Shown here one piece after another: positions 2,262 through 47,049 of a stretch of 64,000 nt of DNA. The notes beneath the pieces were generated by a model. That model was not told the origin of the DNA and did no database searches. It was given only the letters and a program-made list of their open reading frames with translations. The DNA is from Gemmatimonas sp. (lineage in GTDB: Bacteria > Pseudomonadota > Alphaproteobacteria > SMXQ01): the NCBI GenBank assembly GCA_050260515.1, contig JBLNCI010000043.1, forward strand, positions 79,880-143,879. Reading direction: 5' to 3'. The position numbers and the translations under genes are program-made. Each line of letters starts with the position of its first letter. The first letter of the stretch is position 1.

Positions 2262-5741
<3,480 letters not shown>

Positions 5742-37129: not shown

Positions 37130-38905
37130 TTAAGCGTTGGTAACTTGCTTAAGCGCTCGTAAAACCCCGGGCACGAGGTCGGGTACATCCTCGGCGATCA
37201 GCCCGGGCCCGAACGAATCCGCGGCCGCCCCGTGAATCCAGGCGCCGGCGCACGCCGCGTCGAACGGATCCATTCCCTGGGCGATCAGACCGACAATGAT
37301 CCCCGCCAGCACGTCCCCGGCCCCCGCCGTGGCCAGCGTCGGCGGCGCATTGCCATTGATGCGGGCGCGACCATCGGGATGGGCAATCACGGTATCCGCC
37401 CCCTTGAGCAGCATCACGGCACCGGTGACCGAAGCCGCCGTCCGGGCGCGTTCGAGCTTTCCGGCGGTAAGGTCGATCGTGGCGGCGCGCCGGAACAGTC
37501 GGGCGAACTCGCCGTCATGGGGCGTCAGCACCGCGGCGGGCCCGCCGCGGCGATCGGCGGCGGCCTTGAGCGCCTCCACCAGGTCCTGCGGCCGATCGGC
37601 GAACACGGTCAGGGCGTCGGCGTCGAGCACACACACCCGCCCAGCCTCGAGCGCCAGCAGGACATGGGCCCGGGTCGCCGGGGTAGCGCCGTTCCCCGGA
37701 CCGAGCAGAACGGCATTCTTGCGCGGGTCGTCGAGAAGCGCCGCAAAGTCCGCAGGATGGGCGATCGGCATCGTGAGCACACCTGCCATCGCCGCGGCGT
37801 AGATCGGGAGCGCCTCGGGCGGAGAGGCAACCGTGACGAGGCCGGCGCCGACGCGCTGGCAGGCGCGGGCCGCAAGACGCCCGGCGCCGGTCATCGCGGC
37901 GCCGCCGACGACGACCGCATGCCCTCGGCTGTACTTATGTCCGCTGAGCCTCGGCCACGGGAAGGCACCGGCCCAGAGCTCCGGCGCGTTCTCGGCTGTC
38001 CGCGGGCGGATGGTGTCGAGCATGGACTCGGGAATCCCGATATCTGCGACACGGACGTCTCCGCACAATTCCCGTGCGGGAACAAGCAGGTGGGCGGCTT
38101 TCTTGCGAAAGAACGTCACTGTTGCCACGGCACTCGGTGCGCCCTCGCCCGTGCCGAGGACGCGGCCGGTATCTCCGTGGACTCCGGACGGAAGGTCGAC
38201 GGCGATCACCGGCAGCCGCCGCCGATTCAGCTCGCCGACGACAGCCAGGGCGACGCCTTCCAGTGGACGCGTGAGCCCGGCTCCGAACAGCGCATCGACG
38301 ACGACCGCGCCCTCGGCCCAATCCAGCACGCTCTCGGAGAGCGGCACGGCATCGGCGTCGTACATGGCCGCCGCGATCGCCGCATCGCCCTTCAACGTTG
38401 CGCGGTCGCCGAGGAGCGCGACGCGGACCCGGTGCCCCGCCTCGGAGAGATGACGCGCCGCGACGAAGCCGTCGCCGCCGTTGTTGCCGGGTCCGCACAG
38501 CACGACCACCGGTCGGCCCGGATACCGTCCGCGCACGTCATCCGCCACCGCGCGCCCCGCCGCTTCCATCAGCGCGATGCCGGGCGTGCCCGCCTCGATC
38601 GTCTGGCGATCGGCTGCGGCCATGTCCGCGACCGACAGGACCTCGAGCCCGCGGACAGGCGCGGCCGGCGTTTCCACCGGCGCGGCGAAGAAGTCCTCGG
38701 GCAGCAGCGGAACCGAGGACCGCTCCGCGGCGCGCAGCACGTCCTGCTGACGGCGCGCGGGGATGGTCCCGCGCTCGTGCCAGCCCTGCACGGTCGTCGC
38801 CGGAACGCCGAGCAGCCGCGCCAGTGCCCGAATACCGCCGAGGCGGGTGATCACGGCACGCGCGGGATTGTCGTCGCGCGATCGAATGCGAGGAGGCCGA
38901 CCCAT
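37130..38905 (-). CDS. nnr: Bifunctional NAD(P)H-hydrate repair enzyme Nnr (epimerase/ADP-dependent dehydratase) with ~90-aa N-terminal Cro/YdaS-like HTH extension
   Basis: Residues ~95-591 carry YjeF-N (VLCGPGNNGGDGFVAARHL) and YjeF-C carbohydrate-kinase (KYSRGHAVVVGGAAMTGAGRLAA, AGAGDVLAGII) motifs. The N-terminal stretch reads RLGGIRALARLLGVPATTVQGWHERGTIP. ATG 38903-38905 has a strong SD AAGGGGAG. Confidence 0.85.
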   Translation of the reverse strand: MGRPPRIRSRDDNPARAVITRLGGIRALARLLGVPATTVQGWHERGTIPARRQQDVLRAAERSSVPLLPEDFFAAPVETPAAPVRGLEVLSVADMAAADRQTIEAGTPGIALMEAAGRAVADDVRGRYPGRPVVVLCGPGNNGGDGFVAARHLSEAGHRVRVALLGDRATLKGDAAIAAAMYDADAVPLSESVLDWAEGAVVVDALFGAGLTRPLEGVALAVVGELNRRRLPVIAVDLPSGVHGDTGRVLGTGEGAPSAVATVTFFRKKAAHLLVPARELCGDVRVADIGIPESMLDTIRPRTAENAPELWAGAFPWPRLSGHKYSRGHAVVVGGAAMTGAGRLAARACQRVGAGLVTVASPPEALPIYAAAMAGVLTMPIAHPADFAALLDDPRKNAVLLGPGNGATPATRAHVLLALEAGRVCVLDADALTVFADRPQDLVEALKAAADRRGGPAAVLTPHDGEFARLFRRAATIDLTAGKLERARTAASVTGAVMLLKGADTVIAHPDGRARINGNAPPTLATAGAGDVLAGIIVGLIAQGMDPFDAACAGAWIHGAAADSFGPGLIAEDVPDLVPGVLRALKQVTNA

Positions 38906-40306: not shown

Positions 40307-40709
40307 TCAGCGCGACGAGAGGTCGCGCTTCTTCTCCAGGTATTCGTCTCGGTTGATCTCGCCGCGCGCGTAGCGCTCCTCGACCACCGACAGGCCGCCG
40401 TGCCCGCCGTGGCGATGGAACGGACATCCGCCGTGGGTGAGCAGCCTCGTCACCGCGATCACGATGGCGATCAGGCCGATGAGAGCGAAGAGGCAGACCA
40501 CGGCGAACAGCCAGCCATGTCCGCCGTACGATCCGTCGCCCCAGCCCATCATCATGCGCGGACCGTAGCCGTACCAGCGGCCGGGGCCGTCGCCTCCGCC
40601 GGGCCCCGGACCAGGCCCCGGCCCGGGTTGCGCCAGCGCCGGACCGGCCAGCAAGGCCATGCTCAGAATCGCGCCGCCGCCCGCTTTCATCCCACTACGT
40701 AATGTCATC
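40307..40709 (-). CDS. SHOCT-domain membrane protein (signal peptide, Gly/Pro-rich segment, TM helix, CPFHRHGGHGG motif)
   Basis: Start at MTLRSGMKAGGG (ATG 40707-40709, SD GGGGAG). C-terminal EERYARGEINRDEYLEKKRDL matches the SHOCT short C-terminal domain. Confidence 0.65.
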
Positions 40710-40872
40710 ACACGTCTCCCCGGCGGAGAATCCGCCACGCGTCATCCATAGCGCGGAGCGCACAGGATCACGTTGATCCACCTCAAGCGGACCGAACCGG
40801 CCGACCGAACGCCGCCGACAAAAAAAGCGGCTCCATGGGGGAGCCGCTTTTGCGCCGCGAGGTGGTGGGCAG

Positions 40873-41022
40873 TTACTCGCCCGACCCTTCGTCCTTGAAG
40901 CGTTCGTTGATGTCACTGCTGCCGGCAACCGGCGCCAGGTCCGTGGACGGAGATCGTACGGTGCAGGCGGTGATCGACAACACTGAGCACGCGAGCAACA
41001 TGAGCAGGAGCACCTTCGTCAT
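40873..41022 (-). CDS. Small lipoprotein, 49 aa (MTKVLLLMLLACSVLSITAC-TVRSPSTDLAPVAGSSDINERFKDEGSGE); not in ORF track
   Basis: ATG 41020-41022 with SD AAGGAGG 6 nt upstream; lipobox SITAC; stop TAA 40873-40875; paralog of 41224-41364. Confidence 0.55.
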   Translation of the reverse strand: MTKVLLLMLLACSVLSITACTVRSPSTDLAPVAGSSDINERFKDEGSGE

Positions 41023-41223
41023 CGTAACCTCCTTGCGTTATTTGTTCTTTTTATTCTTTGTTGCGGCCGAGCCGCGTTCGGCGAGTCGCCGTTGTCCGGC
41101 GGTCGCGCCGCCGTTTCCCTCGTCTACTCCGAGGCGCCGATACGCGCTTTGACTCATCTCAACCGCGCGATGGCGAAACGCACCGCGCCTTCAATCGACT
41201 GCGCGCCGCGTGTCAGTCGGAGC

Positions 41224-41364
41224 TGTCGTCTTTGAACTGCTCGGTGCCTTCGCGGGTGCCGGCGATCGGATGCAGATTGGTCGGCGCGACGGTGCAAGCG
41301 GCCGCCGGCAAAAGAACAGACGCCACGAGAACAACCAGGAGTGCCTTGCGCATTCCAGTCTCCT
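41224..41364 (-). CDS. Small lipoprotein, 46 aa (MRKALLVVLVASVLLPAAAC-TVAPTNLHPIAGTREGTEQFKDDSSD); not in ORF track
   Basis: ATG 41362-41364 with SD GAAGGAG; lipobox-like PAAAC. Shares the CTV...L.P.AG....E.FKD..S pattern with the upstream paralog. Confidence 0.55.
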
Positions 41365-41401
41365 TCGGCTTCCTGAAGCGACAACACCGAAGGAGGCGGA
41401 T

Positions 41402-41860
41402 TTATTTCCCGGGCGTCCGGTCCTGATCCGTCTTCACGAGCCGGTACGTGCGCCGATCCACCTCGAGCACACCGTCGGCGAATCGCAGGTTGATGCGCAC
41501 CGAGCCTTCATTGCGCTGCCACGGGATGAACTCCATCAACCGCTGCCCCGCCGCGGTGTACGGCTCGGCCAGCCCGATCGACTCGGCCTCGCTTCGGTTC
41601 GCCGCCCGGATGATGATCATGCCGGCGCCGACCCGGTTGCCGGTCTCGTCGACGAACGGCCCGGCGCCGAACAGCACGCCGCGCCGCTCGAGGTCCAACA
41701 GGTACTCGTGGTGGACGATCCGCATCTCCTCGGCCGGCCGAGGCATCGGCGGCGCGTCGGGATTGGGCCGCATCATCAGCACGTAGCACTGCTCGCGCGA
41801 GAGCGACGCCTGGATCGCGGCGGCGCGGGCTTTCGCGTCGTTGGCGGGATCGTCGGGCAT
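41402..41860 (-). CDS. YciI-like/Dabb-type alpha+beta barrel family protein (putative)
   Basis: Start at MPDDPANDAK (ATG 41858-41860, SD GGAGG). Roughly 100-aa core with RGVLFGAGPF...EAESIGLAEPY resembling the YciI fold. Upstream part of the track ORF is judged non-coding. Confidence 0.55.
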   Translation of the reverse strand: MPDDPANDAKARAAAIQASLSREQCYVLMMRPNPDAPPMPRPAEEMRIVHHEYLLDLERRGVLFGAGPFVDETGNRVGAGMIIIRAANRSEAESIGLAEPYTAAGQRLMEFIPWQRNEGSVRINLRFADGVLEVDRRTYRLVKTDQDRTPGK

Positions 41861-41910
41861 GTCGCCTCCGCGCTCTGAAATCGCCGCGAATTCGGCGGTT
41901 TCCACCCGAA

Positions 41911-41940
41911 TTGTGGGTTGTAGGTGAAACTGACTATAAT
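41911..41940 (+). promoter_or_regulatory. Sigma-70-like promoter TTGTGG-N18-TATAAT upstream of the VOC/FAH/TctC gene set
   Basis: Perfect TATAAT hexamer (rare in this GC-rich DNA) 49 nt upstream of the VOC start. Confidence 0.45.
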
Positions 41941-41988
41941 CCGCCGCCCTGCCCGCTACGAGCGGGCACGGCAATCCAGGGGAGAGCA

Positions 41989-42825
41989 ATGACAGTACCC
42001 TCGGCGCTTCGGCCGGCGACGCTCCACCACGTGCAGATCACCTCCGAGCAGCCCAAGGTGCTGGCCGAGTTCTATGGGCACGTGCTCGACGGCGAGGTCA
42101 ACGAGATCGGCGGCGCGTTCCACGTCGCCGGCGCCGAGCGCCACCTCCTGATCGCTCCCGGACCCAAGAACAAGCTCGCGTTCGCCGGATTCGCGCTGCC
42201 CGACGAGGCGCGCCTCGCCAAATACCGCGCCGAGATCGCCGCCAGGGGAATCAACAGCCGCCCGTCACCGACGCCGCTGTTCGCCGACGGCGCGTTCGCC
42301 GTCGATCTGCCGGATGGGGAGCAGTTTGCGTTCGGCGTGCCCCGCAGCAAGTCGGCGAAGCCCGACGCGCGCCCGGGGCGGCTACAGCATGTCGTCGTCG
42401 CCTCGGACCAGCTTCCGGCGATGGCCGATTTCGTGACCAAGCTCGGCTTCCTCGTTTCCGACCGCGTGCTCGACGGCGATCGCGATACCACCGCGATCTT
42501 CATGCGCTCGGACCATGAGCACCACAGCTTCGCGACCTTCCGCGCGCGCGGCCGGCAGTTCGACCACTATGCGTTCGAGGTGAACTCCTGGAACGACATC
42601 CGCGACTGGGCGGATCACCTCGCCAGCCTGCGCATTCCCGTGGGCTGGGGACCCGGGCGACACGGGCCCGGCAACAACCTGTTCTTCATGCTCAACGATC
42701 CCGACGGCAATGCGCTCGAGTTCTCGGCCGAGATCGAGCACTTCACCGAGGATCAACCGACCCGCGAATGGCCCCACGAGCAGCGCACGCTCAACCTGTG
42801 GGGCAGCGCGTGGATGCGGTCGTAG
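41989..42825 (+). CDS. Two-domain VOC-family protein, extradiol (catechol 2,3-) dioxygenase-like
   Basis: Start MTVPSAL (ATG 41989, SD GGGGAG). Tandem glyoxalase/VOC modules. C-terminal module has candidate His/His/Glu metal ligands (RLQHVVVAS, SDHEHHSFATF, GNALEFSAEI). Confidence 0.75.
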   Translation: MTVPSALRPATLHHVQITSEQPKVLAEFYGHVLDGEVNEIGGAFHVAGAERHLLIAPGPKNKLAFAGFALPDEARLAKYRAEIAARGINSRPSPTPLFADGAFAVDLPDGEQFAFGVPRSKSAKPDARPGRLQHVVVASDQLPAMADFVTKLGFLVSDRVLDGDRDTTAIFMRSDHEHHSFATFRARGRQFDHYAFEVNSWNDIRDWADHLASLRIPVGWGPGRHGPGNNLFFMLNDPDGNALEFSAEIEHFTEDQPTREWPHEQRTLNLWGSAWMRS

Positions 42826-46875: not shown

Positions 46876-47049
46876 CTATTGCGGCCGGTCCTTGAACCAC
46901 CCCTCGTAGGGGATGCTTTGTGTGTTCTCGCTCGCCGGGTCCGGGAGGCCGGCCTCGGCCGGGCCGTCCGGCGCGCATCGCGCGACGGCGAGCGTGCCGA
47001 GCAGCGCGACGGCGATCGCGATGGCGGAATTGGTCCACTGCATCTTCAT
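46876..47049 (-). CDS. Small secreted peptide, 57 aa (MKMQWTNSAIAIAVALLGTLAVARC-APDGPAEAGLPDPASENTQSIPYEGWFKDRPQ); not in ORF track
   Basis: ATG 47047-47049 with SD AGGAG 6 nt upstream; signal peptide. C-terminal W-F-K-D resembles the FKD motif of the 40873/41224 lipoproteins. Confidence 0.45.
   Translation of the reverse strand: MKMQWTNSAIAIAVALLGTLAVARCAPDGPAEAGLPDPASENTQSIPYEGWFKDRPQ

Follow-up and report, generated by a model that had tools for sequence, protein, structure and literature searches.

A putative family of micro-lipoproteins with a conserved C-terminal FKD module in an uncultured, apparently alphaproteobacterial clade

Two adjacent minus-strand genes in the 64-kb stretch of DNA analyzed here (hereinafter, the window; GC content 67.7 %), denoted pep1 and pep2, belong to what, as judged from sequence comparison, is a real and previously undescribed family of small bacterial lipoproteins, a well-known type of protein. 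The family is restricted to a narrow clade of uncultured bacteria, having been found only in a few genomes from soil. We are confident, if not certain, that this is a genuine lipoprotein family. A broader statement, namely that pep1 and pep2 are old paralogs within this lineage-restricted family of micro-lipoproteins and that their conserved C-terminal module would be presented on a tether as a ligand, appears moderately probable to us; taken on its own, the proposal of a tethered ligand deserves considerably less confidence than the existence of the family.

A pair of small genes with a shared motif

The original prediction described pep1 and pep2 (Table 1) as two adjacent minus-strand open reading frames (ORFs) for peptides of 46-49 aa, and both are found exactly where they had been placed. 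The strong Shine-Dalgarno (SD) sites that it pointed out, AAGGAGG and GAAGGAG, are likewise present 5-7 nt before the ATG, with a GGAG-N7-8-ATG spacing that is seen again in most of the homologs, and the SD is kept in nearly all copies. The GC content by codon position (0.52/0.48/0.82 for pep1 and 0.66/0.49/0.74 for pep2) is coding-like. The mature parts of the two peptides, for which a common motif had been claimed, are 48 % identical (BLASTP E 2e-7), with pep1 being the more divergent paralog of the pair, and a degenerate DNA pattern of the shared motif matches the 64-kb window at two sites only, those in pep1 and pep2 (0.00 matches expected from shuffled sequences). The genes are not unannotated, as had been thought: pep1 (ACM30I_16025) and pep2 (ACM30I_16030) are already present in GenBank, each as a "hypothetical protein" encoded on a 243.7-kb contig of a metagenome-assembled genome (MAG) labeled 'Gemmatimonas sp.', and so is a third small peptide discussed below.

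In agreement with the initial observation, the locus shows a modest AT enrichment over its surroundings: the GC content is 0.59-0.66 at positions 40700-41500 compared to 0.68-0.74 in the flanks. The 190-nt spacer between pep2 and pep1 is AT-richer as well; a 39-aa ORF within it (41038-41157) was dismissed, with a GC content at third codon positions (GC3) of 0.60, no conservation and no HMM match. An intrinsic terminator located 3' of pep1, between the peptide genes and the gene for a SHOCT-domain membrane protein, has a folding energy of -25.7 kcal/mol (z -3.8); it was overlooked by a consensus terminator scanner and revealed by RNA folding. An Rfam search of positions 40700-42050 (E<=1) produced only a sub-threshold CcsR1 match on this terminator, which is not significant, and an irrelevant match to a frameshift site. 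No sigma-70 consensus was found in a promoter search around pep1 and pep2, and no EcfG-type sequence (GGAAC-N16-17-CGTT) is conserved 5' of the family copies; one EcfG-like match with N15 (homologous locus L002) and one relaxed match (L001) were taken as chance occurrences. No terminator was seen in the gap between pep2 and the upstream YCII-family gene on the same strand, and the two genes are probably co-transcribed.

Table 1 Position of the peptide genes, their predicted signals and neighboring features in the window
Feature	Position	Strand	Evidence and remarks
pep2, predicted 46-aa micro-lipoprotein precursor MRKALLVVLVASVLLPAAACTVAPTNLHPIAGTREGTEQFKDDSSD	41213-41353	-	ORF; family HMM E 1e-26; signal peptide residues 1-19, mature part 27 aa
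pep2 Cys20 codon	41294-41296	-	Predicted lipid acceptor
pep2 C-terminal module, L27-D42 LHPIAGTREGTEQFKD	41228-41275	-	Family alignment; DNA pattern match 41228-41284
pep2 Shine-Dalgarno GAAGGAG	41360-41366	-	6 nt 5' of ATG
pep1, predicted 49-aa micro-lipoprotein precursor MTKVLLLMLLACSVLSITACTVRSPSTDLAPVAGSSDINERFKDEGSGE	40873-41022	-	ORF; family HMM E 1e-21; signal peptide residues 1-19, mature part 30 aa
pep1 Cys20 codon	40963-40965	-
pep1 C-terminal module, L29-D44 LAPVAGSSDINERFKD	40891-40938	-	Family alignment; DNA pattern match 40891-40947
pep1 Shine-Dalgarno AAGGAGG	41028-41034	-	5 nt 5' of ATG
Intrinsic terminator 3' of pep1	40820-40851	-	12-bp stem AAAAGCGGCUCC/GGAGCCGCUUUU, then U-run
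SHOCT membrane protein gene	40307-40738		Pfam SHOCT 27.8 bits; directly downstream of pep1
YCII-family gene (context)	41402-41860	-	Pfam YCII 39 bits; 48 nt upstream of pep2
Third small peptide, 57 aa, ACM30I_16065	46876-47049 (or to 47055)	-	GC3 0.92, coding-like

Family membership, conserved module and selection

An exhaustive HMMER search with a two-sequence profile against 1.84 billion representative proteins retrieved 6 clusters, all of 44-53 aa and with an identical layout, and a word-index search with a seven-sequence profile against 5.8 billion clusters retrieved 17 proteins, all of them either metagenome-derived or from the source MAG. A six-frame scan of the encoding contigs with a local HMM yielded extra copies, some of which had been missed by gene callers, and the family totals ~26 distinct sequences, each of metagenomic or MAG origin. 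In the alignment of 26 sequences, Cys, Pro and Phe are invariant whereas L, G, E, K and D are found in 24-25 of the 26. The family motif, C-[TAS]-x-x-P-[TS]-x-L-x-P-[IV]-x-G-[TS]-x3-x-E-x-F-K-D, is part of the full consensus M-K-x-[hydrophobic x15]-[AG]-C-[TAS]-[VSY]-x-P-[TS]-x-L-[HR]-P-[IV]-[AS]-G-[TS]-x-x-G-x-E-[QM]-F-K-D-x2-9, and its C-terminal portion constitutes the conserved module, L-x-P-[IV]-x-G-[TS]-x4-E-x-F-K-D, which both pep1 and pep2 contain; as a criterion of family membership, [IVL] was allowed in place of [IV]. A 24-sequence family HMM scores pep1 at 73 bits and pep2 at 89 bits. An HMM restricted to the mature part still scores pep1 at 44 bits, pep2 at 65 bits and the members at 40-67 bits, and therefore the similarity is not merely a matter of generic signal-peptide composition, the trivial explanation that accompanied the original prediction.

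Homologs sought in related genomes retain the reading frame. Indels in the family span whole codons; in L007_1, for example, 20 codons are inserted between the Cys and the module, resulting in a 66-aa precursor. In the mature part, the dN/dS values of orthologous pairs (NG86/Nei-Gojobori) range from 0.12 to 0.5, being based on very few sites and consistent in direction, and those for the orthologs of pep2 (L001_2, L003_1 and L005_1) from 0.31 to 0.48. At the level of sequence evolution, pep1 and pep2 are thereby shown to be conserved protein-coding genes under purifying selection.

Scans of pep1, pep2 and the 17 database members against Pfam, NCBIfam, PHROG, PADLOC and PDB gave no match above threshold, and the suspicion that the family is undescribed is borne out by the lack of a Pfam or NCBIfam model for it. 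Sub-threshold NCBIfam matches (LptM, YgdI/YgdR, EexN, entericidin A and PG1828) cover residues 1-15 to 1-27 only; being confined to the signal region, they back the signal-peptide reading but not membership in any of these families. The phyletic range of the family is very narrow: the DNA pattern of the motif had no matches in 185,579 GTDB species (one genome each) or in IMG/VR viral contigs and identified 4 loci in 241 million metagenome records, an absence that is not absolute because this hand-built pattern overlooks divergent copies such as L003_3 and L001_3. A profile search of genome contigs with the two-sequence alignment did not confirm relatives.

In a neighbor-joining tree, the copies group by type across loci (the window copy win_2 with L001_2, L003_1 and L005_1; L003_3 with L005_2; L003_2 with P0011 and P0013), which places the duplications before the divergence of the genomes. 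The retention of old paralog types suggests that the function of the copies has diversified, rather than that the gene was merely amplified.

The third small peptide had been linked to the pair through an FKD motif close to its C-terminus, a connection that did not survive closer comparison. Its scores with the family HMMs are 1.2 and 1.7 bits, and the alignment spans FKD(RP) only; Smith-Waterman alignment with shuffles recovers the same FKD(RP), in common with one member, at z 3.3, and tblastn against the fetched loci did not find a homolog. Although this peptide has a plausible type-I signal peptide (AVA/RC), the context of its Cys, AVARC, places Arg at -1 and hence there is no lipobox. The other coding ORFs of the window, 17.6 kaa in total, contain a single FKD, so the presence of this tripeptide in the third peptide is a mildly unusual coincidence but not evidence of homology.

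Predicted lipoprotein signal

The signal region was evaluated with a lipobox rule in the style of PROSITE PS51257, which calls for positive charge in the n-region, hydrophobicity of the h-region and the lipobox [LVI][ASTVI][GAS]-C, with the Cys at about position 15-35. The lipoprotein signal originally proposed for both peptides stands with respect to the N-terminal K/R, the hydrophobic stretch and Cys20, which are found in both; the lipobox as such stands for pep1 (SITAC), whereas pep2 (PAAAC) departs from the strict rule by Pro at -4 alone. Across the family, 18 of the 26 members conform to the strict lipobox, and the remaining 8 have Pro at -3 or -4, Thr at -1 or, in L001_1, Asp at -1. The Cys itself is invariant (26/26, at position 19-30) and preceded by K/R within the first 7 residues; in all 26 sequences, residue +2 is T, A, S or G, never Asp. 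By this rule-based prediction, the sequences of the family carry a lipoprotein signal.

A variable genomic slot

Nearly all members of the family are encoded in the same slot, with the YCII gene or the promoter region of a VOC/glyoxalase gene on one side and dadA on the other. The syntenic gene order is tig, a small ORF, yjeF (NAD(P)HX repair), dadA (forward), the slot and YCII (reverse); beyond YCII, there is a conserved 50-nt non-coding element followed by genes for a VOC/glyoxalase dioxygenase, an FAA hydrolase and TctC (all forward). A subgroup (P0004, P0012 and P0016) is single-copy and located outside this main slot. The interval between dadA and YCII/VOC is a small example of a gene-gain hotspot. 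The VOC protein has its closest named relatives (56-61 % identity, shared gene order) in MAGs labeled 'Alphaproteobacteria bacterium', and for ClpX, ClpP and Lon of the window, the clusters at 90 % comprise metagenome sequences only; the carriers of the family look like an uncultured alphaproteobacterial clade, and the 'Gemmatimonas' label of the source MAG is doubtful.

The arrays include 1-4 copies. In the window, the slot holds pep2, pep1 and the SHOCT gene; in L001, four peptides, including the divergent L001_3, which has FND; in L004, one peptide; in L007/8, one peptide in the long-tether form; in L009-12, one peptide and a truncated YCII; in L017, a SHOCT gene and then a peptide; and in L013, a SHOCT gene without a peptide. 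Thus, L004, L007, L009 and L017 are single-copy loci. There is no YCII gene in L003, L005 and L018, where three, two and at least one peptide, respectively, directly follow the conserved element; with YCII lost or degraded in several of the homologous loci, this gene cannot be an obligate partner. In the more distant 'Alphaproteobacteria bacterium' MAG GCA_046297835.1 (L015/16), the slot holds no gene, and 3 nt separate dadA from YCII.

This highly variable slot content, with a truncated YCII in L009, along with the very narrow range of the family, Asp at -1 in L001_1 and the divergent FND copy, could be taken to imply that the peptides are neutral or decaying lineage-specific ORFs, recently gained in a recombination hotspot and endowed with little or no function, or else exported peptides that are not lipidated. 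We consider this explanation unlikely: the module is conserved across paralog types that predate the genome splits, dN/dS is below 1, the SD is kept nearly everywhere, the Cys is invariant, and the indels respect codons.

The SHOCT membrane protein was correctly described as a neighbor of the pair, but its co-occurrence with the peptides, the examination of which had been recommended, proved irregular. The two are found together, in either gene order, in 2 of the ~10 peptide-bearing loci (the window and L017), SHOCT is absent from the peptide loci L001, L002, L004, L007/8 and L009-12, and in L013 it occurs alone. The SHOCT protein is a slot-mate of the peptides and not their obligate partner, and a functional link between the two is a minority possibility. 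Such a link could consist in binding of the lipopeptides to the periplasmic region of the SHOCT protein, which is rich in Gly, Pro, Met and His, to form an envelope-stress or metal-related module. In favor of this possibility, three loci (the window, L013 and L017) have a SHOCT homolog of identical layout in this slot, in two cases adjoining a family member, in either order, and SHOCT-type domains have been tied to membrane-associated complexes and to PSP envelope-stress contexts (PMC11237479). Nevertheless, at least 5 distinct peptide loci lack SHOCT, L013 encodes SHOCT without a peptide, the terminator divides pep1 from the SHOCT gene in the window, and the sharing of a variable slot may reflect nothing but the gene-gain hotspot, so we regard a partnership of this kind as quite doubtful.

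Anatomy of the mature peptides and comparison with known small lipoproteins

The mature peptides of the family (25-47 residues; GRAVY -0.3 to -1.1; net charge mostly negative) consist of a short Pro/Thr-rich tether followed by the hydrophilic, mostly acidic module of 16-17 residues. They contain 4-5 Pro+Gly, their hydrophobic runs do not exceed 2 residues, the mean hydrophobicity is below 0, and there is no hydrophobic face. AlphaFold2 models built from a 17-sequence alignment concur for pep1 and pep2 on the signal-peptide helix only: in the mature part of pep2, two 3-residue strands (LHP and FKD) are modeled with pLDDT ~70-75, and in that of pep1, a short helix with pLDDT ~55. With such discordant predictions, of low to moderate confidence, a fold cannot be assigned to the mature peptide, which is probably extended or disordered until a partner is bound.

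The pair had been likened to entericidin-like toxin modules, with the reservation that the sequences do not match those of entericidins. The reservation was justified: none of the 17 members matches Pfam Entericidin (PF08085) at E<=1, and a single NCBIfam match to EcnA (PRK09810) reaches 14.4 bits compared to a cut-off of 86 and covers residues 1-15, that is, the signal peptide only. What the family shares with EcnA/EcnB is a precursor of ~41-53 aa, a lipoprotein signal peptide, a mature part of ~25-32 aa and, in E. coli, an arrangement as tandem paralogs. The similarity ends at the signal peptide, beyond which the peptides analyzed here are hydrophilic and acidic and have a module of their own, L-x-P...E-x-F-K-D, and the arrays of 1-4 copies differ from the entericidin pair. 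Entericidins are reported to be membrane-active peptides that form amphipathic helices (Bishop et al. 1998, as cited in PMC7296081); the amphipathic alpha-helix is not recognizable in the present family, with its 4-5 Pro+Gly and inconsistent AlphaFold helix. The entericidin family does occur in Alphaproteobacteria (PMC7296081, PMC10117765), and its Agrobacterium tumefaciens member Atu8019, a surface-exposed lipoprotein of 53 aa implicated in OMV docking, has no lytic activity (PMC7296081), so even true entericidins need not be toxins.

We therefore weighed, and find very improbable, the possibility that pep1 and pep2 form an entericidin-like toxin/antidote pair under stress control, one copy being membrane-lytic and its tandem paralog neutralizing it. 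The ecnAB-like layout of two tandem lipoprotein paralogs of ~45-50 codons would be compatible with such a pair, the 190-nt AT-richer spacer could hold a separate promoter for the downstream copy, and Atu8019 exemplifies entericidin-family lipoproteins in Alphaproteobacteria (PMC7296081). However, the mature peptides are hydrophilic, Pro/Gly-containing and devoid of a hydrophobic face or run and of a consistent helix, the Pfam and EcnA results give it no footing beyond the signal residues, loci with 1, 2, 3 or 4 copies, single-copy ones included, show that a 1:1 pair is not conserved, and the homolog Atu8019 is itself non-lytic.

Among other small lipoproteins, LptM/YifL (NCBIfam NF047847) is weakly matched by 5 members (<=13.7 bits compared to a cut-off of 27.7; residues 1-21). 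LptM resembles the peptides of this family in being a tiny lipoprotein of which a short segment docks onto an envelope machine rather than folding as a domain; the difference is that the conserved part of LptM directly follows the Cys, whereas that of the FKD family is C-terminal and tolerates a 20-residue spacer. YgdI/YgdR (DUF903), the entry-exclusion lipoproteins EexN and the o-spanins of the phage Rz1 type are likewise made as small precursors with a lipobox and have a mature N-terminus rich in Pro and Thr, but the matches to them are sub-threshold and limited to the signal region, and no phage, plasmid or conjugation context was detected in the loci of the FKD family. Finally, short precursors with a conserved C-terminal core and tandem diversified copies might bring to mind leader-bearing precursors of released signaling or antimicrobial peptides (RiPP- or pheromone-like), a notion that is hardly tenable with no modification enzyme, peptidase or exporter genes in any of the loci, neighbors that are YCII, dadA, VOC dioxygenase, FAA hydrolase and TctC, no PADLOC or PHROG matches of substance, and a 'leader' that is a typical Sec/Lsp signal ending in the invariant Cys.

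A possible role as envelope-anchored ligands

Bacterial lipoproteins are typically processed by the Sec, Lgt, LspA and Lnt pathway. Along this route, the precursors of pep2 and pep1 would be exported by Sec, lipidated on Cys20 and cleaved, giving rise to triacylated peptides of 27 and 30 residues, respectively. In E. coli, lipoproteins with a residue other than Asp at +2 are transferred by Lol to the outer membrane (inner leaflet), and since +2 is never Asp in this family, the lipopeptides would be delivered to the same place; sorting rules differ outside Enterobacteria, however, so the outer-membrane placement is a guess by analogy. There, the flexible Pro/Thr tether would present the hydrophilic, acidic module of 16-17 residues, and this module could serve as a tethered ligand, or a docking epitope, that is recognized by a partner in the periplasm or envelope. 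The 20-residue insertion in the tether of L007_1, which leaves the module intact, implies that the distance from the membrane is seemingly not critical. Given these sequence features, a ligand or docking epitope most likely fits better than a membrane-active peptide. Of the candidate partners encoded in the loci, none co-occurs with the peptides consistently enough to be nominated.

There is a slight chance that the lipid-tethered module represents a new type of envelope-anchored ligand, the diversified copies of which would modulate or gate a protein of the membrane or periplasm, perhaps the SHOCT protein, rich in Met, His and Gly, that is encoded in the same slot. On present evidence, there is no sign of an unusual mechanism, and the system is not a surprising one.

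Implications

The reach of this family is narrow, a single uncultured clade; it does not challenge the current understanding of lipoprotein biology, and its main value lies in annotation. Small lipoproteins are under-annotated, and the compact motif together with the 26-sequence alignment could yield a Pfam or NCBIfam model. A few small lipoproteins, such as LptM, entericidins and Lpp, are important envelope factors. The family analyzed here also varies naturally in tether length and copy number, which could be exploited in tests with synthetic peptides, for instance, the 17-mer module NLHPIAGTREGTEQFKDD. If the diversified copies indeed modulate or gate an envelope partner, these peptides would constitute an unrecognized regulatory layer of small proteins in the alphaproteobacterial envelope.

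A putative divergent promoter beside the peptide genes

Alignment of the window with the loci compared around the peptide-gene slot (metagenome and MAG contigs, designated L) revealed a non-coding element of about 50 nt that is near-invariant in five of them, namely the window, L001, L003, L004 and L005 (see table for coordinates). The element lies between the VOC/glyoxalase operon on one side and the divergent YCII and peptide genes on the other, and carries a TATAAT hexamer on the plus strand and its mirror, TATAGT, on the minus strand. An Rfam search (E ≤ 1) of positions 40700-42050 gave no match on this element, which is probably a divergent promoter/operator common to both sides. In the more distant locus L015, the place of the element is occupied by a gene for an IclR regulator.

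Coordinates of the features discussed in the text
Feature	Locus	Position	Strand	Remark
Conserved ~50-nt element	Window	41899-41950	+ (sequence as given)	GGTTTCCACCCGAATTGTGGGTTGTAGGTGAAACTGACTATAATCCGCCGCC; inside intergenic 41861-41988
Conserved ~50-nt element	L001	~1900-1960
Conserved ~50-nt element	L003	~320-380
Conserved ~50-nt element	L005	~1590-1650
Conserved ~50-nt element	L004	~4380-4440
Perfect TATAAT in the element	Window	41935-41940	+	48 nt upstream of glyoxalase ATG at 41989
SHOCT protein	Window	40307-40738	-
SHOCT homologue	L013	4753-5136	-
SHOCT homologue	L017	479-871	+
yjeF (NAD(P)HX epimerase/dehydratase) ORF	Window	37130-38905	-
Shortened YCII next to peptide array	L009	5563-5862	-	99 aa
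57-aa ORF (NCBI ACM30I_16065)	Window	46876-47049	-	flanked by SAM methyltransferase and GFA-family genes

The peptide genes and their neighbors

Between the pep2-type orthologues of the micro-lipoprotein family, synonymous divergence is clearly lower in the half of the gene encoding the mature peptide (dS 0.18-0.49) than in the signal-peptide half, where dS is about 1 or saturated. The low values may reflect strong codon bias, gene conversion among the copies or constraint at the nucleotide level.

The SHOCT protein combines a signal-like N-terminus, a segment rich in Gly, Met and Trp ((GP)n / G-W-Y-G / M-M-G-W), a single transmembrane helix and the motif H-G-C-P-[FY]-x-R-H, with the SHOCT domain at the C-terminus; this layout is kept in three loci (window, L013 and L017). 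Its Met, His and Cys content hints at metal binding.

The yjeF ORF of the window is extended at its N-terminus by about 95 aa, and residues 17-59 of this stretch produced weak matches to HTH domains of the Cro/YdaS type. The extension is also found in L004, L007 and L009 (whole ORFs of 608, 598 and 602 aa, respectively), whereas L015 encodes a 496-aa YjeF without it and, instead, has a separate 86-aa gene upstream. The extension may have arisen by gene fusion, or the start codon may have been mis-called.

ACM30I_16065 (GC3 = 0.92) is not related to the lipoprotein family. Clustering at 90% leaves it as a singleton, and no homologue was found in the fetched loci. Its product, possibly a small secreted protein, has a hydrophobic N-terminus with a predicted type I-like cleavage site (AVA|RC); the tail beyond this site is acidic, rich in Pro and terminates in WFKDRPQ.

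Host assignment and turnover of the locus

The MAG containing the window (proteins MGE5540116-MGE5540132) is named 'Gemmatimonas sp.' at NCBI. This label, or the binning of the MAG, looks doubtful because the nearest named homologues of the VOC protein, with synteny over eight genes, come from 'Alphaproteobacteria bacterium' MAGs. A member of the lipoprotein family, in L002, also lies near a gene for an HWE-type histidine kinase.

In L009-12, YCII is cut by a frame change, such that about 60 aa of good homology are followed by junk sequence, and in L003, L005 and L018 the gene is entirely absent. Genes have therefore been gained and lost repeatedly in the dadA-VOC interval.
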